DNA of 64,000 nucleotides from a virus: positions 32,001-96,000 of the IMG/VR virus record IMGVR_UViG_3300028388_004019, one strand, 5' to 3'. Made by a program: the position numbers and the translations under genes. Each line of letters opens with the position of its first letter. Position 1 is the stretch's first letter. The notes beneath the pieces are model-generated. The model worked only from the letters and a program-made list of their open reading frames with translations. It ran no database searches and had not been told where the DNA came from. Of the stretch, positions 21,450-50,547 are shown one piece after another.

Positions 21450-21455
21450 ATTCTT

Positions 21456-21462
21456 ATAAATA
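21456..21462 (-). promoter_or_regulatory. putative late-promoter motif TATTTAT
   Basis: 6 nt upstream of the ATG at 21449. Confidence 0.5.
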
Positions 21463-25067: not shown

Positions 25068-26345
25068 CTAATCTATCGTTCCTGCTTGCCAGTATTCATC
25101 TCCCGACAAATCTAAATTTATGTCATCACTTAGACCATTCACTATATGTAATTGAGTAGACCCTGTATCTGAAAAGTAAACAGAATTACCCGTCCATGCT
25201 GAAATAGATAGTTGTTCAGCAACTTTATCAATTCGATTTGCCAAACCTCGTACTGGTCTCCATACATAAGTATTTTCTGTGATGTACACTTTTATACTCT
25301 GACTTGCGAAAACTAATCCGACAATCTTTCTTGTACCTTCAATATCGGCCACTAATGCTGAGCCAGAATCCCCACCGTTTATAGGATAATAACACCAATA
25401 GTCCTCAGTGGTTGTTAATGCACTGGCACCAAATCTTATACAATCAGAGAAATAAATAACCTCCTCTACACCTTGATTATTATATTTGATAGTTATCGAA
25501 TGTGAAGTTGAATCAACAAATAGTTTACTATCACCTTCACCTTTTGGACCTGTAGTACGACCAGTACTGAATAAGTTGTTTCGATTGGTTAATAAACTGT
25601 CAATTTCTGATGTCGAAGCAAATTCCAAAGTGTCTAACCAATCATTCATCCCGTATTGTTTATACGAAACAGAATAATCAATATCAGATTCATTGATTGT
25701 TGTCAATGCAGCATCAACAGTATTATATTCAGGAGTACCACTCAACGGTACATACCTTTTAACTAAACCAATCGAATTTTGTAGTCCTCTATTACTACCA
25801 TCGTTAGGTTGAGTAACAAAATTATTACTTATACTTGTATGTGTTTTATCAGGGTTTCTCTCCGATGCTAAAAAAGCGTTTTTAACTAAAACATGGTTAT
25901 TACTTACACCAACCAATGAATTAGTATCAGTATCCACTGCTAAAAAACCTAAAGTACCCACATAATTACCTAAATTAGTATAGTTGGTTACTGAAATACC
26001 TCCTTGAAGTGGTCTGAATTTATCTCGATTACCAGGCGCCACCGAATCCCATGAGTAAAAATTGGATGGACACCATTGAGCATTTTCAAGACTGGCGAAT
26101 TCATATTTACCTTCTTCAACATCAGTGGGTAATAATTCCTCACCGACTTGTATTTCAGAAGGTAAAACCTCATCTTCAGGTATTTCATCGAGAGGTTTTT
26201 TCTTGATGACCGTAAAAACAATAGCATCTTCATTGGTGAGTTTACCACCAACTGTTTTTTTACCATAACCAACACCTACTACATCCTCGGGTGTTATACT
26301 ATGGTAGTGTTTAGTTATTTTGTTAATTATACTTTGGTCCATCAT
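25068..26345 (-). CDS. chymotrypsin-fold (S1/PA clan) serine protease with N-terminal pro-region
   Basis: Triad motifs in order: SNNHV (His), VDAAL (Asp), GGDSGS (Ser). Confidence 0.85.
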   Translation of the reverse strand: MMDQSIINKITKHYHSITPEDVVGVGYGKKTVGGKLTNEDAIVFTVIKKKPLDEIPEDEVLPSEIQVGEELLPTDVEEGKYEFASLENAQWCPSNFYSWDSVAPGNRDKFRPLQGGISVTNYTNLGNYVGTLGFLAVDTDTNSLVGVSNNHVLVKNAFLASERNPDKTHTSISNNFVTQPNDGSNRGLQNSIGLVKRYVPLSGTPEYNTVDAALTTINESDIDYSVSYKQYGMNDWLDTLEFASTSEIDSLLTNRNNLFSTGRTTGPKGEGDSKLFVDSTSHSITIKYNNQGVEEVIYFSDCIRFGASALTTTEDYWCYYPINGGDSGSALVADIEGTRKIVGLVFASQSIKVYITENTYVWRPVRGLANRIDKVAEQLSISAWTGNSVYFSDTGSTQLHIVNGLSDDINLDLSGDEYWQAGTID

Positions 26346-26350
26346 ATGTT

Positions 26351-26357
26351 ATAAATA
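26351..26357 (-). promoter_or_regulatory. putative late-promoter motif TATTTAT
   Basis: 5 nt upstream of the protease ATG. Confidence 0.5.
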
Positions 26358-26411: not shown

Positions 26412-29400
26412 TTACCCACCACATGGGTGCTCTGCAGGTGATGTACACTCACTACAGTCGACATATACCTCACTAGGTCCACCTGTCCACAGATTACCAT
26501 TATTACCAATAAACTGACCGTTAATAACACCCAGTTTGGTCTCCGTACCAGTTGATGAGGTATAGAAACTGACACATTGGTCACTTATACCTGTTTGATT
26601 TTGTAAATATAATGTAGTTCTACCAGCAGTAATTGCTTGATTAATCTCACTTTGAAGTGTTGTAGTCACACTCAATGAATATGGAGTAGCTTCACCAGTT
26701 TCACAACACCCTGAGAAATATATGTCAACATAATTTGGTGTTTGTGTAATTGACGGAGTAACCGTATTTGTAGGTGTGACCGATGGAGTCACTGAGGCCG
26801 TCACAGTTTGAGTTGGTGTATTAGTAACAGTTTGAGTTGGTGTATTAGTTTGTGTTTGGGTCGGTGTATTAGTTTGTGTTTGGGTCGGTGTATTAGTTTG
26901 TGTTTGGGTTGGAGTAGAAGTGACTGTTTGTGTAGGTGTCTTAGTTTGTGTCATAGTATTTGTCGGAGTATTAGTTACAGTCTGTGTAATAGTTGGCGTC
27001 ACAGATAACGTAGGCGTCACTGTCGGTGTTGGTGTTTGACTCTGTGTAGGTGTTGGGGTAGGTGAAAGACAGTAACCTAAATTATTTATAGCATCTTCAA
27101 TCAGGTCCGCGTAGTACTGTGAACTACCTTGTCTTAATACATTGTAAGTATTATGTATTTCTGTTTTATCTGAAAGTCCATATATACCAGCATAATTTCC
27201 GAGACCCTCTTCAACCGCAATCAATAAGTTTTGGAAATTGATATGACTTTGATTTGTTCCAGAGACTTGGAAATACTCACCTCTTATATCATAACTATTA
27301 CTATCGATACGAGACCTTAGTCTCACAATATCGGAATCGAATGTAGACGTTCTGGTTGTAAAAATACCCCAATTACCATCTCCAGTATAATCAGTTTGGG
27401 CTTCATCTTGGAATACCATATTTAGACGCTTATCAACGGTAGGGTCATCGAAACTTAAACTCGATAAAAAGAAATAACCACGTTCATCAGATTTTTTGAA
27501 TTTAACACGTTTGTCGTATAAGTCTTCGTCATTATTATAGAACGGTAATAAAACAGGTTTAAGAAGTGTATTCACAGCAACAGATAAAGGTGGAATAGTT
27601 ACATCCATAGAACCCGATGAATCATAGTAAATATTAATTTCTGTCCCATCATCTATTGGGATACATGCCGGTGTTTCTGTAAGTGTAGGACTAATCGAAG
27701 GCGTAGGTGTTAGTGTTGCATTAGGTATGAAAATAAATTCTGTAAATACCTCCCCTTCTGTAGGTGTGACTGTAGGTGTAACTGTCGGAGTTGATGTATA
27801 TGTTGGACTCACAGAGATTGATGGTGTATTAGTTGGACTATTTGATATTGTAGGTGTGTTAGTTGGACTTACCGATATAGTTGGCGTGTTTGTAGGACTC
27901 ACTGAAATCGTAGGGGTATTTGTTGGTGTAGGTGTAGGACTCACATCAGGATTACTACAACAGTTGTTACATATTGTTGTCAATGTGTATGCGGATGATG
28001 GGTATTGTGGTGGGAATACTACAGTACCTTGTTGAGCACATATTCTCACAGTTTGAGGTACTCTATAAATAAATCCATGAGATTGTCTCACTGTCCCACA
28101 TAATGTTTCATCACACTCATCGTACCAATATTCAAATAGACCTTCATTACCTAACTTAGTAACAGTTATTTCATAAACACTACAATCATACAATACCCCT
28201 GATGGTGATGGAGTCACTGTATGTGTCGGAGTAACTGTTGGTGTCGAAGTTACTGTTGGGGTTTGAGTCGATGATGGTGTATAAGTTTGAGTTGGGGTTT
28301 GTGAACTACCAGGTGTTTGTGATACTGTGACTGTAGGTGTTAAAGTAGGTGACTGAGTCACAGTAACCGTTGGTGTTTGGGTTGACGCAGGGCTTGAAGT
28401 TATTGTCGGAGTCTGTGTTACTGTCGGAGTATTCGATGGTGTTGGAGTATTAGACGACGTTACAGTCACCGTTTGTGTTGGAGTGATTGTGGATGTCGGA
28501 GTAGATGTAGGAGTCCCACCAGGTGTCTCTGATGGTGTTACAGTCTGTGTTATGGTGGCTGTTGGTGTAAATGTTGGAGTGATACTTGATGTAATTGACG
28601 GAGTTACCGTTAAAGTAGGTGTTACCGATGCTGTTGTTGATGGTGTCAATGTCGGGGTAATAGACGGTGTTGCCGATGCGGTTGGAGTAAATGTTGAGGT
28701 TTGTGTTGGCGTATTTGTCTGTGTAACACCAGGAGTTTCAGAAGGAGTTACCGTCAATGTTGGTGTTTGTGTTGGGGTTTCACTGGCAGTAACCGTTGGA
28801 GTTACAGAACCTGTAGGTGTATTAGTATTTGTAACCGTTGGTGTTACCGAAGCAGTCGTAGATGGTGTTGGTGTAATCGAAGCTGTTGGAGTAACAGACG
28901 ATGTTGGAGTTACCGTTTGTGTTGGAGTATTAGATGGTGTTACCGTGACCGTTTGAGTAGGTGTATTAGTAGGTGTTGAACCTGGCGTTTCAGATGGAGT
29001 CACCGTTTGTGTCTGAGTAACCGTCGGAGTAATACTTGCCGTTAATGTTGGAGTTACTGATGCTGTTGGTGTATTCGTATTTGTAACCGTTGGAGTAACT
29101 GATGAAGTCACTGATGGTGTAGGTGTTACAGACGCTGTTTGAGTAACAGTAGATGTCGGAGTAACAGAAGATGTAGGGGTTACTGTTGACGTTTGAGTTA
29201 CAGTCTGAGTTGGTGTAGATGTTGGAGTTACTCCTGGTGTTTCTGATGGTGTTACCGTTTGTGTTTGAGTAACTGTTGGAGTCACACTCGAAGTCAATGT
29301 TGGAGTTACTGACGCAGTTGGAGTAATCGAAGCAGTCACTGTAGATGTAACTGACGGTGTTGGTGTATTTGACGTTGTTGGTGTTATTGTAGCAGTTGGA

Positions 29401-32400
29401 GTAACCGTTGAAGTCTGTGTTACCGTTTGTGTTGGGGTATTAGTCGGGGTCACCCCTGGTGTTTCAGAAGGAGTTACCGTCAATGTTGGTGTTTGTGTTG
29501 GGGTTTCACTGGCAGTCACTGTAGGTGTTACAGATGCCGTTGGTGTGATAGTAGATGTAATTGTCGCTGTTACTGATGGTGTCGGCGTATTTGATGTTGT
29601 TGGAGTAACAGACGCAGTAGGAGTAACTGATGATGTAGGTGTTACTGAAGCGGTTTGTGTAACCGTCGCAGTTGGCGTAGATGTCGGTGTAACCCCTGGT
29701 GTTTCAGAAGGTGTGACCGTTTGTGTTTGTGTCACTGTCGGTGTGATAGTAGCGGTCAATGTTGGTGTAACTGATGCCGTTGGAGTAACTGTTGAAGTAA
29801 TTGTTGCAGTCACTGATGGTGTCGGAGTTACAGAAGATGTTGGGGTAACCGATGCCGTCGGGGTAACAGAAGCTGTTGGTGTGACTGAACTTGTTGGAGT
29901 ATTAGTCGGAGTAGAAACAGGTGTTTCAGAAGGTGTAACAGTTTGTGTTTGAGTAACAGTTGGAGTTACACTTGAAGTTACTGTCGGCGTTACTGATGCA
30001 GTTGGAGTAACACTTGCAGTGATTGTAGCAGTCACAGACGGTGTTGGAGTATTTGATGTTGTAGGAGTAACGGAGGCCGTTGGAGTTACTGACGATGTCG
30101 GAGTAACAGACGCAGTTTGTGTTACCGTTTGAGTCGGTGTAGATGTTGGAGTTACCCCTGGAGTCTCAGATGGTGTTACCGTTTGAGTCTGAGTAACCGT
30201 CGGTGTAATAGTTGCCGTTACCGTTGGTGTAATAGAAGCGGTAGGAGTAACAGATGATGTAACTGTCGCAGTAACTGATGGGGTTGGAGTATTTGACGTT
30301 GTAGGTGTAACCGATGCTGTTGGTGTAACTGATGAAGTAGGAGTATTAGAAGGTGTTACCGTAACTGTAGAAGTTGGTGTAGATGTCGGAGTAACACCTG
30401 GCGTTTCAGAAGGAGTTACAGTTTGTGTTGGCGTGAATGTTGGTGTAACTGTAGCAGTTACGGTCGGTGTAATACTTGCCGTTGGTGTTACACTCGCAGT
30501 TATAGTTGCAGTTACCGATGGTGTTACTGTTTGAGTAGGAGTTACTGATGCAGTTGGTGTAACTGATGAAGTAGGAGTTACTGAAGCCGTCACCGTTTGA
30601 GTTGGTGTGATTGATGCAGTTGGTGTCACACTAGCAGTCGGCGTTACAGATGAAGTAGGAGTATTTGTTTGTGTTACCGCAGGTGTTTCAGATGGTGTTA
30701 CCGTTTGAGTCGGTGTGTTAGTTGGTGTCTCACTTGCCGTCAATGTTGGTGTAACAGACGCCGTTGGTGTTACCGATGCCGTTACAGTAGCAGTAACCGA
30801 AGGTGTCGGAGTATTTGTAGGTGTTTCAGTAGGTGTTGGAGTTACCGATGATGTAGGCGTTACACTTGCAGTTGGAGTAACCGAAGCGGTAACCGTTTGT
30901 GTTGGTGTGATAGTTGCCGTTTGAGTAACAGTTGAAGTTGGAGTATTAGTTGGCGTACTTACAGGTGTTGACGAAGCAGTAACAGTTTGTGTCGGTGTAA
31001 ATGTTGGAGTCACGGTAGAAGTGACCGTTGGAGTTATAGACGCAGTAGGAGTTACCGATGCAGTAACAGTTTGAGTAACTGTTTGAGTAGGTGTGTTTGT
31101 CGGAGTTAACGATGCTGTTGGAGTAACTGAAGATGTTGGAGTAACACTTGATGTTGGAGTAACCGAAGCAGTAACCGTTTGAGTTGGAGTAATAGTTGAC
31201 GTTTGAGTTACCGTTTGTGTTGGAGTGTTAGTTGGGGTAATTGATGGTGTCTCAGATGGAGTAACCGTCTGAGTAGGCGTAAATGTCGGAGTAACCGTGG
31301 CAGTTACCGTTGGAGTAATAGACGCAGTTGGTGTAACTGAAGCAGTAACAGTTTGTGTAACAGTCTGAGTTGGGGTATTTGTCGGTGTAATACTTGCAGT
31401 TGGAGTGACCGAACTTGTAGGTGTTACTGATGATGTTGGCGTAACCGAAGCCGTAACCGTTTGAGTTGGGGTAATAGTTGCAGTCGGTGTCAATGTAGAC
31501 GTAGGAGTATTCGTAGGTGTCACTGCTGGTGTAGAAGAAGCTGTTACCGTTTGTGTCGGAGTAAAGGTTGGAGTCACCGTTGAAGTAACAGTTGGAGTAA
31601 TAGACGCAGTAGGTGTTACCGATGCAGTAACCGTTTGAGTCACTGTTTGTGTTGGCGTATTTGTAGGTGTCAACGAGGCAGTTGGTGTAACCGAAGCAGT
31701 TGGTGTTATTGATGATGTTGGAGTAACCGAAGCAGTTACCGTTTGAGTCGGAGTTATAGTTGCAGTTTGTGTAACTGTTGATGTTGGGGTATTAGTTGGA
31801 GTAACTGCGGGGGTTGAAGAAGCAGTGACAGTTTGTGTTGGCGTAAATGTCGGAGTGACCGTGGCAGTTACCGTTGGTGTGATAGTTGCAGTTGGTGTAA
31901 ATGTTGGAGTAACCGTAGCCGTAACTGTTGGTGTTATTGAGGCAGTTGGTGTTACACTAGCGGTTGGAGTAACTGAAGATGTAGGCGTTACCGAAGCTGT
32001 CACTGTTTGTGTCGGGGTAATTGTAGCAGTTGGAGTAACTGAAGATGTTGGAGTGACTGATGATGTCGGAGTATTAGTCGGAGTGACCTCAGGCGTTGAA
32101 GATGCCGTCACAGTCTGTGTAGGGGTAAATGTTGGAGTAACCGTGGCAGTTACAGTCGGTGTAATACTTGCAGTCGGTGTTACCGACGCAGTAACAGTTT
32201 GAGTGACAGAGGCAGTTGGAGTAACCGACGCAGTAGATGTCACCGTTTGTGTTGGTGTATATGTCGGAGTAACTGAAGGTGTCGGTGTTACCGACGCAGT
32301 TGGTGTTGGTGTTGGAGTCGGAGCAATGAATATAACCTCAACGGGACATGTACACGCACTCGTATTAACATCAGTAATACCCCAAGTACTAATAGTCTCA

Positions 32401-35400
32401 CCCGGAGGTAAAATGGAATTAAAATTATATTCAATTTGATGTTCATTAACCGGCATCGTTCTCACACCTGAATATGTGAATCCTGAACTACCTGTCATGA
32501 AACCTGATATCTCATAATCACATAGTGATTCTGCAGGGTCCGTTAATGCAGCATCATTCCAAAGATTAATTCTAATCTTATCACCCTGGACAATGTAACC
32601 AGCAATATACTGTGTTGTCTGTGGACATGTTGCCGATGGAGTTACCGTCTGTGTTGGAGTAATCGATGCAGTTGGAGTAATTGATGATGTCGGCGTTACA
32701 GATGCAGTCGGGGTAACCGTTTGAGTAACTGAGGCGGTTGGTGTAACACTTGCAGTCACTGTTTGTGTCGGAGTAATTGTTGCGGTTGGCGTTACTGACG
32801 ATGTTGGTGTTACAGAAGATGTTGGCGTATTAGTTGGAGTCACTGCAGGAGTTGAAGATGCAGTAACCGTTTGTGTCGGGGTAAATGTCGGAGTGACCGT
32901 GGCAGTTACCGTTGGTGTTATTGATGCAGTAGGGGTAAACGTAGGTGTTACGGTCGCAGTTACTGACGGGGTAATAGATGCCGTAGGTGTTACTGATGCA
33001 GTTGGTGTAACAGAACTTGTAGGTGTATTAGTTGGAGTAACAGTATTAGATGGTGTTACGGTATTGGTCGGAGTCACACTTGCGGTTGGTGTGACAGAAG
33101 ATGTTGGAGTATTAGTTGGTGTAACTGCAGGGGTTGAAGAAGCAGTTACTGTTTGTGTCGGAGTAACCGTCGCAGTCCTTGTAGGTGTAACCGTTGGCGT
33201 TACTGATGATGTAGGTGTAAATGTCGGGGTAACAGTTGCGGTTCTTGTCGGCGTTACCGATGGAGTAACTGTTGATGTTGCAGTTACAGACGGAGTCGGA
33301 GTAACACTTGCGGTTGGTGTTACCGATGATGTCGGAGTGTTTGTAGGAGTAACACTCGAAGTTGGTGTAACTGAAGAAGTCGGCGTATTTGTTGGAGTTA
33401 CAGTATTAGAAGGGGTAACCGTATTTGTTGGAGTCACACTCGCAGTTGGAGTAACCGACGATGTCGGTGTATTTGTGGGTGTTACCTGAGCAGTCTGTGT
33501 AGGTGTATGTGTTGGTGTTACAGTAGATGTCGCAGTTACCGATGGTGTTGGAGTAACAGATGAAGTTGGAGTTACAGAAGCAGTAGGAGTATTTGTAGGT
33601 GTTACCGTATTAGTTGGAGTAACCGATGCGGTTGGTGTTACTGATGATGTTGGTGTATTTGTCGGAGTAACACTTGCCGTTGGGGTGACAGTAGAAGTCG
33701 CAGTAACCGAAGGTGTTGGTGTATTTGATGAAGTCGGTGTATTAGTTGGAGTTACCGCTGCCGTTTGTGATGGTGTCACAGATGCAGTTGGAGTATATGT
33801 TGGAGTAACAGTCGCAGTCCTTGTTGGCGTAACAGTTGGAGTAACTGAAGACGTTGGTGTAAATGTTGGTGTAACCGTATTAGATGGAGTAACAGTATTC
33901 GATGGTGTAACTGATGATGTAGGAGTATTTGTAGGTGTAACCGTATTAGATGGAGTAACAGTATTCGATGGTGTAACTGATGATGTAGGAGTATTTGTAG
34001 GGGTAACAGTATTTGACGGAGTTACAGTATTTGTTGGAGTATACGAAGGTGTTACCGTATTTGTTGGGGTAACCGATGCAGTTGGCGTAACTGAACTGGT
34101 TGGTGTATTCGTAGGCGTAACAGTATTTGTTGGAGTATACGAAGGTGTTACCGTATTTGTTGGGGTAACCGATGCAGTTGGCGTAGCAGTTCTTGTCGGT
34201 GTCCTTGTAGGACTTACCGATATCGAAGGAGTAACTGAAGGAGTAACCGTCGCGGTTCTGGTCGGTGTTCTAGTAGGACTTACTGAAATAGAAGGCGTAA
34301 CCGTTGCAGTTCTCGTAGGGGTCCTTGTAGGTGTTCTAGTAGGACTAACCGAAATAGAAGGCGTAACCGTTGCAGTTCTGGTCGGTGTACGTGTTGGTGT
34401 TGGTGTAGGTGATGGACATGACGGACACTCCCCATAACCACAAATACTCTCAATCCAGTTTGGTGCAGGTATAAATAAATCAGGAATACCAGTACTCGTA
34501 GATGTTATCTGATAACACGCATTATTACCAAATGGATTAATAACACCATCACCCTGAAATAATACCGTACCTGATGTTGTTGACGCAATGAAAGTATCAT
34601 TAGAGTCACAACAATTAACCATTAAATACTTATCAACAGCTGGTGTTGAAGTCGGTGTCGGAGTACGAGTTGGAGTACTCGTTGGAGTTCTTGTTGGAGT
34701 TCTTGTTGGTGTACGAGTTGGTGTCGGTGGTATTGTCGTAGGTGTAGGAGTAGGTGTCGGCGTTACAGGTGTGTCACCACAACATTCTGTACATGTTTGA
34801 TATGCAGTTGCACTACAAGTCTCCACAGGTTCACAATCAGGAACAATACCTTCAACAAAGTAACAACAACCATCACAGTTATCTAACTTAACAACTTGAC
34901 CAGCATTTGGACATGGACTTATATTAAGGGATACAAATTGACCAGAGTATTGATAGTTACATGTTCCACAAGCTTCTGGGTCAATATCAATACAAGGGAT
35001 AAGGAATGCACAACAGGTTTGATTAAGATTCATTATATCATAACCAACACCAGGTTCCATACCAGGTTCATAAGGTGTTGGAGTACCCTCACCCTCACAT
35101 TCTTCACAATTATTAAATGTCTGTACTACACTACCAATAAAACTAATATTAGCTTCTGAACAATTTTCAGCACATGAACCTGACCTGAAAACCTCCCAAC
35201 AAACATTAATATTATCAACAAAAGCCTGACCTACTTGAAGATTATAAACATTTTGTATACAGGCAACAGAACTTCTCGTCCTACAATCTCTAATACAAAC
35301 ATAACCTACATTGTGAACAATATACCCATCTAAGATATAGTAATTAGGACCACTAAGAGAAAGGTTATAGATTGGGTCGAAAGAATATACAATCTCTTTG

Positions 35401-35774
35401 GATTCAACAGGTTCGTGAATAACCTCACCGTCAACCATTTTAACCATATCGTATTCACCCCCAACAACTAAACTTATGGTGGAAACAAATTGATATTTTT
35501 CTTTGGTTTTGTGGTACGCTAATACGTGTTCATCAATAACACCCAACCCATTAATCTGAAGGTAATTACCCGATTCTTCTAATATCTCGGTAACCTCAGG
35601 AGATTGGACATTATCAACATTAATGGTAGGAAATTGGACCTCACGGAAGTCAACGCCGTTAACAATTTCAGGTATATCAAAAGAAAACAGTTGGTCCCCT
35701 AATTGAATATCTTCAATATTCTTTACGGAACCATCTGATAATAATACTTTCTGTCCTAACTTATAACCTGCCAT
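26412..35774 (-). CDS. giant (3120 aa) mucin-like Thr/Pro-repeat protein with N-terminal Hint domain, Cys-rich modules and a vWA-like domain
   Basis: Uninterrupted 9.4-kb ORF. Hint blocks in aa 1-155, about 2000 aa of TPTxSx hexads, and a YYDSSGSM MIDAS-like motif. Confidence 0.9.
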   Translation of the reverse strand: MAGYKLGQKVLLSDGSVKNIEDIQLGDQLFSFDIPEIVNGVDFREVQFPTINVDNVQSPEVTEILEESGNYLQINGLGVIDEHVLAYHKTKEKYQFVSTISLVVGGEYDMVKMVDGEVIHEPVESKEIVYSFDPIYNLSLSGPNYYILDGYIVHNVGYVCIRDCRTRSSVACIQNVYNLQVGQAFVDNINVCWEVFRSGSCAENCSEANISFIGSVVQTFNNCEECEGEGTPTPYEPGMEPGVGYDIMNLNQTCCAFLIPCIDIDPEACGTCNYQYSGQFVSLNISPCPNAGQVVKLDNCDGCCYFVEGIVPDCEPVETCSATAYQTCTECCGDTPVTPTPTPTPTTIPPTPTRTPTRTPTRTPTSTPTRTPTPTSTPAVDKYLMVNCCDSNDTFIASTTSGTVLFQGDGVINPFGNNACYQITSTSTGIPDLFIPAPNWIESICGYGECPSCPSPTPTPTRTPTRTATVTPSISVSPTRTPTRTPTRTATVTPSISVSPTRTPTRTATVTPSVTPSISVSPTRTPTRTATPTASVTPTNTVTPSYTPTNTVTPTNTPTSSVTPTASVTPTNTVTPSYTPTNTVTPSNTVTPTNTPTSSVTPSNTVTPSNTVTPTNTPTSSVTPSNTVTPSNTVTPTFTPTSSVTPTVTPTRTATVTPTYTPTASVTPSQTAAVTPTNTPTSSNTPTPSVTATSTVTPTASVTPTNTPTSSVTPTASVTPTNTVTPTNTPTASVTPTSSVTPTPSVTATSTVTPTHTPTQTAQVTPTNTPTSSVTPTASVTPTNTVTPSNTVTPTNTPTSSVTPTSSVTPTNTPTSSVTPTASVTPTPSVTATSTVTPSVTPTRTATVTPTFTPTSSVTPTVTPTRTATVTPTQTVTASSTPAVTPTNTPTSSVTPTASVTPTNTVTPSNTVTPTNTPTSSVTPTASVTPTASITPSVTATVTPTFTPTASITPTVTATVTPTFTPTQTVTASSTPAVTPTNTPTSSVTPTSSVTPTATITPTQTVTASVTPTASVTQTVTPTASVTPTSSITPTASITPTQTVTPSATCPQTTQYIAGYIVQGDKIRINLWNDAALTDPAESLCDYEISGFMTGSSGFTYSGVRTMPVNEHQIEYNFNSILPPGETISTWGITDVNTSACTCPVEVIFIAPTPTPTPTASVTPTPSVTPTYTPTQTVTSTASVTPTASVTQTVTASVTPTASITPTVTATVTPTFTPTQTVTASSTPEVTPTNTPTSSVTPTSSVTPTATITPTQTVTASVTPTSSVTPTASVTPTASITPTVTATVTPTFTPTATITPTVTATVTPTFTPTQTVTASSTPAVTPTNTPTSTVTQTATITPTQTVTASVTPTSSITPTASVTPTASLTPTNTPTQTVTQTVTASVTPTASITPTVTSTVTPTFTPTQTVTASSTPAVTPTNTPTSTLTPTATITPTQTVTASVTPTSSVTPTSSVTPTASITPTNTPTQTVTQTVTASVTPTASITPTVTATVTPTFTPTQTVTPSETPSITPTNTPTQTVTQTSTITPTQTVTASVTPTSSVTPTSSVTPTASLTPTNTPTQTVTQTVTASVTPTASITPTVTSTVTPTFTPTQTVTASSTPVSTPTNTPTSTVTQTATITPTQTVTASVTPTASVTPTSSVTPTPTETPTNTPTPSVTATVTASVTPTASVTPTLTASETPTNTPTQTVTPSETPAVTQTNTPTSSVTPTASVTPTASITPTQTVTASVTPTSSVTPTASVTPTQTVTPSVTATITASVTPTASITPTVTATVTPTFTPTQTVTPSETPGVTPTSTPTSTVTVTPSNTPTSSVTPTASVTPTTSNTPTPSVTATVTSSVTPTASITPTVTATITPTVTQTQTVTPSETPGVTPTSTPTQTVTQTASVTPTSSVTPTASVTPTTSNTPTPSVTATITASVTPTASVTPTVTSSVTPTVTQTQTVTPSETPVSTPTNTPTSSVTPTASVTPTASVTPTSSVTPTPSVTATITSTVTPTASVTPTLTATITPTVTQTQTVTPSETPGVTPTSTPTATVTQTASVTPTSSVTPTASVTPTTSNTPTPSVTATITSTITPTASVTPTVTASETPTQTPTLTVTPSETPGVTPTNTPTQTVTQTSTVTPTATITPTTSNTPTPSVTSTVTASITPTASVTPTLTSSVTPTVTQTQTVTPSETPGVTPTSTPTQTVTQTSTVTPTSSVTPTSTVTQTASVTPTPSVTSSVTPTVTNTNTPTASVTPTLTASITPTVTQTQTVTPSETPGSTPTNTPTQTVTVTPSNTPTQTVTPTSSVTPTASITPTPSTTASVTPTVTNTNTPTGSVTPTVTASETPTQTPTLTVTPSETPGVTQTNTPTQTSTFTPTASATPSITPTLTPSTTASVTPTLTVTPSITSSITPTFTPTATITQTVTPSETPGGTPTSTPTSTITPTQTVTVTSSNTPTPSNTPTVTQTPTITSSPASTQTPTVTVTQSPTLTPTVTVSQTPGSSQTPTQTYTPSSTQTPTVTSTPTVTPTHTVTPSPSGVLYDCSVYEITVTKLGNEGLFEYWYDECDETLCGTVRQSHGFIYRVPQTVRICAQQGTVVFPPQYPSSAYTLTTICNNCCSNPDVSPTPTPTNTPTISVSPTNTPTISVSPTNTPTISNSPTNTPSISVSPTYTSTPTVTPTVTPTEGEVFTEFIFIPNATLTPTPSISPTLTETPACIPIDDGTEINIYYDSSGSMDVTIPPLSVAVNTLLKPVLLPFYNNDEDLYDKRVKFKKSDERGYFFLSSLSFDDPTVDKRLNMVFQDEAQTDYTGDGNWGIFTTRTSTFDSDIVRLRSRIDSNSYDIRGEYFQVSGTNQSHINFQNLLIAVEEGLGNYAGIYGLSDKTEIHNTYNVLRQGSSQYYADLIEDAINNLGYCLSPTPTPTQSQTPTPTVTPTLSVTPTITQTVTNTPTNTMTQTKTPTQTVTSTPTQTQTNTPTQTQTNTPTQTQTNTPTQTVTNTPTQTVTASVTPSVTPTNTVTPSITQTPNYVDIYFSGCCETGEATPYSLSVTTTLQSEINQAITAGRTTLYLQNQTGISDQCVSFYTSSTGTETKLGVINGQFIGNNGNLWTGGPSEVYVDCSECTSPAEHPCGG
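33868..33999. repeat. exact 66-bp tandem duplication inside the giant mucin-like gene
   Basis: ggtgtaaccgtattagatggagtaacagtattcgatggtgtaactgatgatgtaggagtatttgta occurs twice in tandem. Confidence 0.85.
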
Positions 35775-35793
35775 TTACTGATACACTTAACCT

Positions 35794-35800
35794 ATAAATA
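35794..35800 (-). promoter_or_regulatory. putative late-promoter motif TATTTAT
   Basis: In the 46-nt gap upstream of the giant ORF's start. Confidence 0.5.
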
Positions 35801-35820
35801 ATCGGTTAACCCCTTTTGTA

Positions 35821-38181
35821 TCAGGATTCTTTCCTCAAACTTCCGTCGTAATGGTCAAATCTATCGTGTTCAGTCGGACTTAATAACAAGATACCTGGTT
35901 TAATGTTACCCTTGATTGTTTCTTGGAACATATAAGACATCCAAGTTTGCTCATAAGGACGAGCCCATTTCTCCGTTAAGAACATCTTTTCATTACCGTA
36001 TTTCGATACAATCTGAGGCCAGTTACAGTAATAAATCTCACCATGTGCAAATGGTATTCCTTGGAATGTGTCTATTTTAGTGATTTTAGTTTTTGGTGCG
36101 TTAGGGTCCAATCCTTGAACAGGTAGATTTGGTTTTTCTGGCCAATGTTCTTCCCTAATATGTTGTGGAACATTATACCACGCCCATTGAACCGTATTGT
36201 CACCATAAAATTCTGTATAAGATAACTTTAAGAAATCAAAGTTGTTTTTCTTTGCAATTTTTAATGAGTTTCTGTATAGATTCTTCACATATCTGTTGAA
36301 TCCATTCTTACAAACCTCACCTTGTTTTGGATAGAAGAACATATCATCTTCAAAGAAGAAATAATAATCAAATCCTCTCTCCTCAGCATCCTCAGCAACC
36401 CACTGACGACCACCACAAATACCTAAGTTGTCTTTCTTAACATAAATCATATTATATTCTTTTGCCAACTCTTCATATTCAGGTGATGTCGATAAATCTG
36501 TTGAATTATCTAAGACAACCCATTGAGGTTTCGTCACAAAATCCTCATCATATTGTTTCATCGACTCAATCAATGTTTTTATCTGATTTGGACTATTAAA
36601 TGTAATAACATATAAACCTACATTGGTAATATCTAAATCATTTTTGATTACCTCAAACCTCATCTCATCCATCGGTTTGTGTCTATCCTGTTTGACATCC
36701 TCAAAGAACTTATTAATCAACCCATTCCCTTCGATTGGGAAGTATTGGTAGTTCTCAGGGTATCTATATAACAATAAGGTAAATAGAGACTCCTCAGTAC
36801 CCATATAACCCTGATTAAGGGTGGATTTCATAATACCGTAATACTCATTATTAAAATCAGCAATATCTTCAATAGGACCACCAAAGAACCCACCACGACA
36901 AACTTTATTGACTTTAGCATTTGCAATCTCATTCATCTTATTAATCTCGAAACCGTGAATCTCAGTATTCGATTCATAAGGGAACGCAATGAAAGTCATC
37001 TTATCAATCTTTGTCAACTTATCCAATACTCTATCATGTGTAAAGTAACCTGAATGTACGGTATTAGTAATACCAGCATCCAACCAGAATAAGTGTGTTG
37101 AACCAAACTTATCCATAATCTTAGCATCGTGTAACAAATATGGTTTTGACATCACCAATGGATTGTACATATCCAATCTACCTTGAGTAGATTCTGATAA
37201 CCATCCCACCTGATTTTGCCATTCAGGGTTTGTACGAATGTTTTGAATTGGTTCATAGAATTCTCCTTTGAACCACTCTTGGCTACGACTGATGAACTGT
37301 GTTGTCTCATCTGACCTTCTCTCCATAACAAAATCCCTTAATTCCTCATCACCAAATACAATCATGTTGTAAGGTATCTTAAGAATTTCATCAAATTTTT
37401 TTAAATAATGTTCAAAACTACGTGACCAACCTTCCGCTAATTCATCACGTTTAATGTTCCATAACCCTGTTACTATAGTAATTCCGTTGTTTTCCATTTC
37501 TCCGTAAAGTTCTTTATAAATGTATTTTTTTATTCCGACGATATCTCCGCCCTCAAGACCATAAACATAATCATGTTGGTCAAATTTTTGAATGATATTT
37601 TGTTGGTCTTCTTCTTCCAAACTTCCCCACTCTATTCTAACAATCTTTGGTGAATGTCTTTCAAAATCAATTTGTTTGAAGATAACATAGTCATGACCTT
37701 CAGCATCAATTTTAATAACATCATAATCAATGATTTCATGCTTATTTAATAATGAATCTAAGGTGATTGTTGGAACCTTAATTCTCACTCCATATTTTTC
37801 TACAGTATCTCTATCACCTTCACTAGCCAAACCATTTTTTGGTGGATATATTGCACTCATACCCATAAAACAATGGTGGATATCTTTATTTTCAATAGCA
37901 AAAGGATTGATGGTTAACATTTCAACCTCACCATTTTTATCAGACACCGCAGAGTTTTCAAACTTATGTTTGTCACCCAAATTCTTCACCAGTTTATGAA
38001 AGTAATAAGGAATCGGTTCCACATATAAACCTGTGAAATCATATGCGTTGGTATACCCGATTAATTCATCAAATGTTTGTCCGTCCATCGCACCAATATT
38101 AAGTGTAAACAATTTATGTCCTTGTTTACCCAAATGGTGAAGTGCGTGATTGAAATAATCTGTTTTTTCTAATTGAATCAT
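35821..38181 (-). CDS. tri-domain protein: FkbM-family methyltransferase + HtrL/YibB-like domain + GT-A-like domain
   Basis: FkbM motifs NIGAMDG, VEP and IKIDAEGHD; HtrL-like ITIVTGLWNIKR...RSFEHYL and FWLDAG; C-terminal YVITFN...DNST...GICGGRQ...FFEDD (DxD-like). Confidence 0.75.
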   Translation of the reverse strand: MIQLEKTDYFNHALHHLGKQGHKLFTLNIGAMDGQTFDELIGYTNAYDFTGLYVEPIPYYFHKLVKNLGDKHKFENSAVSDKNGEVEMLTINPFAIENKDIHHCFMGMSAIYPPKNGLASEGDRDTVEKYGVRIKVPTITLDSLLNKHEIIDYDVIKIDAEGHDYVIFKQIDFERHSPKIVRIEWGSLEEEDQQNIIQKFDQHDYVYGLEGGDIVGIKKYIYKELYGEMENNGITIVTGLWNIKRDELAEGWSRSFEHYLKKFDEILKIPYNMIVFGDEELRDFVMERRSDETTQFISRSQEWFKGEFYEPIQNIRTNPEWQNQVGWLSESTQGRLDMYNPLVMSKPYLLHDAKIMDKFGSTHLFWLDAGITNTVHSGYFTHDRVLDKLTKIDKMTFIAFPYESNTEIHGFEINKMNEIANAKVNKVCRGGFFGGPIEDIADFNNEYYGIMKSTLNQGYMGTEESLFTLLLYRYPENYQYFPIEGNGLINKFFEDVKQDRHKPMDEMRFEVIKNDLDITNVGLYVITFNSPNQIKTLIESMKQYDEDFVTKPQWVVLDNSTDLSTSPEYEELAKEYNMIYVKKDNLGICGGRQWVAEDAEERGFDYYFFFEDDMFFYPKQGEVCKNGFNRYVKNLYRNSLKIAKKNNFDFLKLSYTEFYGDNTVQWAWYNVPQHIREEHWPEKPNLPVQGLDPNAPKTKITKIDTFQGIPFAHGEIYYCNWPQIVSKYGNEKMFLTEKWARPYEQTWMSYMFQETIKGNIKPGILLLSPTEHDRFDHYDGSLRKES

Positions 38182-50522: not shown

Positions 50523-50547
50523 TCCCCTTTTTAATTATAAATATTCA

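Follow-up and report, generated by a model that had tools for sequence, protein, structure and literature searches.

We analysed a 64,000-nucleotide stretch of viral DNA (positions 32,001 to 96,000 of IMG/VR record IMGVR_UViG_3300028388_004019; hereafter the window), with the focus on the first 155 residues of a giant protein, which we identify as a domain of the Hint (Hedgehog/intein) superfamily. The record is a 183,755-bp virus fragment with a completeness estimate of 60%, so the complete genome is probably near 300 kb, and its source is probably an uncultured jumbo phage. Genes surrounding the giant gene are of phage type, with PHROGs for tail-fibre-like and virion proteins, a primase, and an exonuclease. 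The giant open reading frame (ORF) occupies 26412..35774 on the minus strand and encodes 3120 amino acids, with residues 1-155 corresponding exactly to window positions 35310-35774. An earlier reading of this DNA from its letters (the sequence-only reading) had proposed that these residues follow the Hint blocks and are competent only for self-cleavage at their C-terminal end. The motifs on which it relied were all found in the translation: MAGYKLGQKVLLSDGSVKNIEDIQLGD, IDEH at residues 80-83, and YNLSLSGPNYYILDGYIVHN ending at N155, followed by VGYVC.

All parts of the protein lie on the minus strand. The Hint domain (35310..35774), delimited by phmmer, AlphaFold2, Foldseek, and VIA-align, begins with M1-A2, followed by G3 at Hint position 1, and ends with N155 as its terminal residue. 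The Gly3 codon (35766..35768) lies at the site of the Hint N-terminal nucleophile, as placed by alignment to PI-SceI, structural alignment, and invariance across the clade of close relatives described below. The codons of His154-Asn155 (35310..35315; blocks G:6 and G:7) mark the predicted Asn-cyclisation site, with Asn155-Val156 as the predicted scissile bond, based on invariance and synonymous codon variation. Residues 156-335 (34770..35309) form a Cys-rich globular domain, defined by conservation and AlphaFold2 and predicted to be the N-terminal domain of the mature protein. The remainder (26412..34769), as segmented from its translation, consists of Thr/Pro/Ser repeat tracts broken by five small globular, mostly Cys-containing segments. 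The gene directly downstream of the giant ORF (25068-26345, minus strand) matches phrog_20754, 'protease', with E 1.7e-17 and is without a Pfam family.

A glycosylation block lies directly upstream and comprises, according to Pfam, an N-acetylglucosamine (GlcNAc)-type transferase, a carbamoyltransferase, an HtrL-like gene, and, as its last gene, an FkbM methyltransferase/HtrL/GT-A-like glycosyltransferase fusion (35821..38181, minus strand; Methyltransf_21 E 9e-18, HtrL_YibB E 5e-13). This fusion gene ends 46 nt before the ATG of the Hint gene and is in a different reading frame. The codon immediately preceding that ATG is an in-frame TAA, so the domain has no N-extein, consistent with the sequence-only reading, which had allowed for almost none. 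Four divergent lineages share the same start and, in an alignment, a conserved intergenic TTATTTATAG motif (35792..35801, minus strand), whose core TATTTATA starts 26 nt before the ATG and is a candidate phage promoter of the Hint-mucin gene. Among related loci with upstream sequence, TATTTATA begins 26-27 nt ahead of the Hint ATG in 49/49. The core occurs 14 times in the window versus 5.4 expected, 12 times on the coding (minus) strand, and looks like a phage-specific, perhaps late, promoter, recalling the T4 late TATAAATA box. Further copies were noted at 26350-26357, 21455-21462, and 50536-50543 (minus strand), several of them just upstream of structural genes.

The similarity to Hint domains far exceeds chance; Pfam by itself is a weak guide. 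With the window protein as query, Pfam matches were weak (Hom_end_hint E 0.003, Intein_splicing E 0.22, both below cut-off), with the Intein_splicing alignment reaching profile position 155 of 155 at N155, and residues 1-300 had no match to PT-HINT (PF07591) at E<=1, short of its gathering cut-off. In contrast, a profile of the clade compared with the PDB gave BIL2 as its best sequence match, at E 8e-5. An exhaustive phmmer search with residues 1-220 against a library of 1.84 billion representative proteins returned 134 proteins at E<=1e-3 (best 5e-17), and the junctions of all were parsed. Beyond close relatives, the matches were nearly all canonical Hint domains running from Cys1 to a terminal HN, more than 100 of them. 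These canonical relatives open with C-F-x-x-G-T-x-[IV]-x-M-A-D-G, close with [VI]-H-N, and often stand in tandem arrays spaced by K or K-G-G-G. Representative members exceed the thresholds of Pfam PT-HINT and Intein_splicing as well as those of the NCBIfam intein N- and C-terminal models, with PT-HINT scores of 92.6 bits for P0012 and 71 bits for P0016.

Residues 1-200 were modelled with AlphaFold2 from an alignment of 35 sequences; the model had a predicted local distance difference test score (pLDDT) of 88.9 and a predicted template modelling score (pTM) of 0.83, and the top Foldseek matches of this model were all Hint structures. When model residues 3..155 were superimposed on whole Hint chains with VIA-align, Z scores were 15-17.5 and the root-mean-square deviation (rmsd) was 1.7-2.1 A over 126-134 residues. 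Individual partners included Hedgehog 6tyy (Z 17.5, rmsd 1.8 A over 132 residues), BIL2 6y75 (Z 17.4), the Mtu RecA mini-intein 2in0 (Z 17.1, with model residues 3..155 equivalent to chain residues 1..440), Ssp DnaB (Z 16.9), and the C. thermocellum BIL 2lwy (Z 16.7). Because the sequence alignment with PI-SceI and the structural alignment agree, Gly3 is assigned to position 1 and Asn155 to the terminal Asn. The Hint fold that the sequence-only reading presupposed was thus predicted, and its proposal that residues 1-155 follow the Hint blocks is confirmed by canonical-Hint homology and the structural overlays: this is a true Hint domain.

Related loci were collected from metagenomes with the seed pattern [YH][YF][IVL]L[DN]GY[IV]V, which ends before the His-Asn pair. 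The scan yielded 61 loci from marine, estuarine, and freshwater metagenomes, representing 35 unique N-terminal sequences that fall into three subclades by identity to the window (64-100%, 31-42%, and 28-30%). A word-based protein search and viral-contig scan identified a syntenic 297-kb contig (L001) with 74% identity and an ORF of >2200 aa, and two distant relatives (37% and 28% identity) have the same gene order; viral-contig scans seeded with P0004 and P0014 found nothing. The start M-[AVSI]-(I)-G-[YF]-K-x-G-Q is common to all relatives and is preceded by an in-frame stop at a distance of 0-9 codons. In 48/49 loci with enough upstream sequence, 50-89 nt separate the Hint ATG from the end of a preceding HtrL-type glycosyltransferase gene. 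All ORFs of the clade continue into Cys-rich modules and tracts of 24-40% Thr and 12-17% Pro. In a quick, provisional maximum-likelihood tree, the Cys-less sequences make up one side of a branch with a Shimodaira-Hasegawa-like approximate likelihood ratio test (SH-aLRT) value of 99, consistent with a single origin from Cys-bearing Hints. Two further proteins, P0047 and P0114, had appeared to be free-standing Cys-less N-terminal Hints; they were rejected, as their frames are open upstream (...GGC/M... and ...YGC/L..., the slash marking the called start) and the gene calls had simply cut short ordinary C-terminal Cys1 Hints.

Conservation in these loci changes abruptly at the His-Asn pair. Within the Hint domain 22 of 155 columns are invariant, including G3, K5, G7, Q8, L148, G150, Y151, V153, H154, and N155, versus none for residues 156-175 in the same 35 unique sequences, and indels occur immediately after HN (HN-VG-YAC, HNDVP-NIC, HN-LAPTIC). 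A complete 1343-aa member (L057, 4001-8032) consists of a Hint, another type of Cys module (CC...YDGECYEL...C..C repeats), TPTN repeats, and a C-terminal non-repeat domain. Since a different Cys-rich module follows HN in this protein, the Hint is a portable, modular cap. In one 28% relative (L010, 3044-6788), a frame change separates the Hint and initial Cys-rich part (212 aa) from the mucin-like body (>1062 aa), with the two frames overlapping by ~80 nt, which reflects either an assembly frameshift or a real split; the sister loci L062 and L063 are continuous.

The residues required for the N-terminal half of Hint chemistry are missing. Gly3 is invariant in the 35 unique clade sequences, whereas position 1 is Cys in 214/214 aligned canonical relatives, which bears out the earlier statement that Gly replaces the nucleophile. 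The +1 residue is Val156 in the window and mostly V or I in the clade, with few L, F, or D, one Ser, and never Cys, so the accompanying prediction that Val after HN would prevent splicing also held. The block B-like IDEH described by the sequence-only reading is present, with H83 but no Thr, unlike the Thr-x-x-His of class 1 inteins; its His is kept only in the nearest relatives of the window, being N/Y, E, or P elsewhere, and is probably not functional. At F:4, where class 3 inteins have the Cys of their Trp-Cys-Thr triad, the window has N137 and the clade N, S, or R; at F:13 the window has N144, and the clade N, S, F, Y, or D. With no N-extein and no Cys/Ser/Thr at position 1, an acyl shift and N-terminal cleavage are impossible, and with neither a +1 nucleophile nor Cys at F:4, no class 1, 2, or 3 splicing route remains. 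To judge from the residues present, splicing and N-terminal cleavage are therefore excluded, and the decay of the block B His fits the loss of the N-terminal step.

The C-terminal residues are preserved. H154-N155 is invariant in every locus that reaches the junction, while over 29 distinct junction DNA sequences His is encoded by CAT 23 times and CAC 6 times, and Asn by AAT 19 times and AAC 10 times. Invariance of the pair with synonymous variation of its codons indicates purifying selection on both amino acids, and the seed pattern that retrieved the loci stops before HN. Across 207 domains of the canonical relatives, Asn occupies F:4 in 71%; at F:13, 44% have His and 30% Asn, and 66% carry Lys at +1. 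N137 and N144 are accordingly ordinary states of this BIL-like family, and the mostly non-nucleophilic +1 residue of its canonical members is, by sequence, the A-type BIL pattern. Lys5 and Gln8 are invariant and specific to the clade, in contrast to L/V/I/P and Thr at these positions in canonical relatives; as a speculation, these two residues, on the strand next to the active site, may compensate for the absent auxiliary residues.

Asn cyclisation does not have to be coupled to the steps before it, and when uncoupled is known as C-terminal cleavage; A-type BILs, which have His-Asn without a +1 nucleophile, give mostly cleavage products, with the C-terminus cut via Asn (PMC4031507, PMC7765530). 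The His residues at F:13 and G:6 aid cyclisation and are not required in all inteins (PMC4031507, PMC7765530). With moderate confidence, we favour the view from these comparisons that residues 1-155 are a self-removing N-terminal cap that cleaves itself at the Asn155-Val156 bond. In the proposed sequence of events, the mucin-like protein would be expressed from a promoter of its own, just after the glycosylation genes, and the Hint would fold on leaving the ribosome. Gly in place of Cys1 and the missing N-extein would preclude a thioester, and Val at +1 would preclude ligation, so that the sole remaining Hint reaction would be cyclisation of Asn155, aided by His154, with breakage of the bond to Val156. 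The products would be a Hint of ~17 kDa with a succinimide at its end and a mature protein whose first residues, VGYVC, open a disulfide-type Cys-rich domain. The invariant HN with its synonymous codon changes is as expected if Asn cyclisation is still used, as the sequence-only reading proposed; with its block B His and its virion assignment qualified, the parts of that reading open to computation came out in its favour. Possible roles for such a cap are a folding or solubility nucleus for the long low-complexity chain, a handle for the glycosylation enzymes, or a mask for the Cys-rich tip, all of which fit the data.

Several points weigh against self-cleavage. The evidence for it is all comparative. 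The strongest objection to efficient catalysis is that the block F His (F:13) is not conserved across the Cys-less clade; F:4 also varies there (N, S, or R). Beta-branched +1 residues (Val, Ile) are unfavourable for C-terminal cleavage in engineered inteins, and the few relatives with Leu or Phe at +1 would expose bacterial N-degrons if cleaved in the cytoplasm. In addition, several inteins cyclise much more slowly without a preceding branched intermediate (PMC4031507). Finally, the loci were fetched with a block G pattern, by which relatives with a decayed block G could be missed; the pattern-free phmmer search contained none.

The unconserved auxiliary residues could also point to a Hint without catalysis, a structural or adaptor domain kept on the mature protein, for example as the fibre's distal knob or as a module for docking during assembly or with glycosyltransferases, with His-Asn conserved only as the close of the last beta-strand. 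We regard this alternative as possible but rather doubtful. Neither of the auxiliary residues, F:4 Asp and F:13 His, is present or conserved, and the invariant, clade-specific K5 and Q8 in the N-terminal strand on this view show remodelling for another purpose. Non-catalytic folds of this kind exist, with AXH of ataxin-1 among the weak sequence matches, and in the model of residues 1-200 (pTM 0.83) the segment that follows is placed confidently beside the Hint. However, a purely structural role leaves unexplained why HN is invariant across 28%-identity lineages while the far side of the bond is variable and carries indels, why the domain always ends exactly at HN, and why the N-terminal catalytic residues decayed with the C-terminal ones kept.

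A further possibility, which we consider unlikely, retains self-removal but makes it a timed event. As the mucin-like chain emerges and is glycosylated by the neighbouring GT60-like, HtrL, and carbamoyltransferase enzymes, the Cys-less domain would act as a purpose-built leader, a handle for docking or folding, much like the leader of a ribosomally synthesized and post-translationally modified peptide (RiPP). It would then remove itself through a site re-wired such that Lys5 and Gln8, or a nearby free alpha-amine, stand in for the block F His.

Phage proteases commonly mature proheads and fibres, and the gene adjacent to the giant ORF, with its match to phrog_20754 at E 1.7e-17, offers a candidate for cleavage at or near the domain boundary by a phage or host protease, in which case the Hint would be only a recognisable pro-piece. 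The variable, indel-bearing residues after HN show no conserved P'-side recognition site, an intact Hint with a selected HN would be a needlessly elaborate pro-piece, and nothing ties this neighbour to the giant protein, so we consider proteolysis of this kind very improbable. Hardly any weight is left for an annotation artefact, in which the true start with Cys1 and an N-extein lies upstream, or for a decaying intein relic: truncated gene calls with a Cys just upstream, as in P0047 and P0114, show that such errors occur, but here a mis-annotated start or upstream Cys is ruled out by the TAA directly before the ATG, the other frame of the upstream gene, and the start shared by 49/49 loci with upstream sequence, with TATTTATA fixed at -26/-27, and one well-supported clade (SH-aLRT 99) under purifying selection is not decaying.

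The self-removing cap that we favour has counterparts among characterised systems, none of which it matches in full. The domain has the superfamily hallmarks of a Hint, namely a fold whose termini meet at the active site and significant homology. It has the C-terminal His-Asn of class 1 inteins and lacks their Cys/Ser/Thr at position 1 and at +1, their Thr-x-x-His in block B, and their insertion between two exteins of a conserved host protein. Hedgehog/Hog domains have Cys1, lie at the C-terminal end of their precursor, and include a C-terminal region for sterol/adduct recognition; the window domain is distinct from them in its Gly3, its location at the extreme N-terminus, and the Cys-rich domain of no known fold that follows it.

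By fold and profile, the nearest characterised relatives are the A-type BILs (2lwy, 6y75). Like these, including BIL2 of the Tetrahymena BUBL locus (6y75/6tmm), the domain combines the Hint fold with a C-terminal His-Asn and no +1 nucleophile, occurs in variable, non-housekeeping, repeat-rich host proteins, and would be expected to undergo Asn cyclisation leading to C-terminal cleavage (PMC4031507, PMC7765530). Unlike the window domain, with its invariant Gly and no flank, BILs have Cys1 and an N-terminal flank and cleave or ligate at the front; the clade further differs in its unconserved block B His and in its host, a phage mucin-like protein. Since it lacks Cys1 and the N-terminal flank, we classify it as a BIL-like Hint in a new configuration rather than as a member of the group. 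Engineered C-terminal-cleaving intein tags (PMC7765530) share the arrangement of an N-terminal Hint or intein with a disabled nucleophile that releases its target by Asn cyclisation alone. Those tags are laboratory constructs from splicing inteins, whereas the window family is natural and conserved and has its own remodelled strand (K5, Q8).

Two other systems resemble the domain in what it may do. PT-HINT (PF07591), the pre-toxin Hint of polymorphic toxins, shares the proposed role of freeing the C-terminal portion of a large protein that is secreted or lies at the surface, but is internal, has Cys1, and precedes a toxin, whereas the window domain is N-terminal and Cys-less and precedes a Cys-rich, mucin-like fibre. 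The S74 autopeptidase of phage tail spikes and fibres (PMC7824862) is likewise a self-cleaving module on a low-complexity fibre that is discarded after folding or assembly, and this intramolecular chaperone would be, by analogy, the closest functional parallel in phages. Its fold and chemistry (a Ser-Lys dyad) are unrelated, and it is C-terminal rather than N-terminal. Our literature search found no paper on an N-terminal, Cys-less Hint of a phage structural protein, and for BIL or Hint domains in phage virion proteins it yielded nothing beyond reviews and true inteins of phage terminase genes.

The Cys-rich domain exposed by the predicted cleavage is itself conserved. In 24 sequences, residues 156-335 contain 28 invariant columns, 17 of them Cys (C5, C9 etc.), and an AlphaFold2 model of these 180 residues reached a pLDDT of 95.2 and a pTM of 0.89. 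No convincing match to a solved structure was found with Foldseek (best E 0.9) or VIA-align (best Z 4.3), and the mature protein may carry at its tip a disulfide-rich fold not yet described. Disulfides are suggested by the 17 conserved Cys, which in turn points to a role outside the cell, exposed on the virion. With its Thr/Pro repeats, the mucin-like product is probably a glycosylated virion surface fibre, and we infer from the neighbouring genes only that it is a virion protein. No Pfam family was found for the globular segments of the remainder. One of them, a 203-residue segment at residues 2703-2905 (27060-27668, minus strand), contains INIYYDSSGSMD, which resembles the D-x-S-x-S motif of vWA/MIDAS, and had no Pfam match at E<=1. 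The repeat region at window positions 28000-34000 has a GC content of 0.45 versus ~0.37 and a plus-strand GC skew of +0.37 to +0.43, an anomaly explained by the ACN/CCN codon load of the minus-strand Thr/Pro tracts.

Beyond the clade, the 184-kb record contains no second Hint copy or PT-HINT match, and megablast and tblastn with the region gave no match in 50,697 GenBank phage records. Jumbo phages of Xanthomonas and Stenotrophomonas encode 46-48% relatives of the GT60-like neighbour, and the XacN1 locus carries a glycosyltransferase and carbamoyltransferase pair; the Hint gene was not found by tblastn in the records of these jumbo phages, XacN1 included. Canonical Hints occur in other large contexts. 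Many large metagenomic proteins (P0008-P0136) carry tandem arrays of 2-9 canonical Hints joined by short linkers (VHN-K-C, VHN-KGGG-C), some of them fused to Tim44-like domains (P0012, P0031). At two other loci (L011 1-8586, L074 2035-3701), proteins ending in a canonical Cys1 Hint with a 4-5-residue tail directly precede arrays of up to eight 2-oxoglutarate (2OG)-Fe(II) oxygenase genes, and one follows a Phe/Pro-repeat region (FFPPFFP...); such loci may serve peptide modification or protein hydroxylation.

To our knowledge, the Hints described so far, in inteins, Hedgehog processing domains, BILs, and pre-toxin modules, all use an N-terminal Cys or Ser and an upstream flank. The 61 loci define a natural, widespread family in which a giant mucin-like phage protein opens with a Hint that appears to retain only one reaction, the same layout that biotechnologists have built by hand for self-cleaving purification tags. 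If the domain does not cleave, it would be a clean example of the Hint fold recruited as a non-catalytic module. If it does, it would provide a natural, probably well-tuned C-terminal-cleaving Hint for protein engineering, show how Asn-cyclisation catalysis can operate without Cys1, the block B His, or the block F His, and add an extra maturation step to the little-known glycosylated fibres of jumbo phages.

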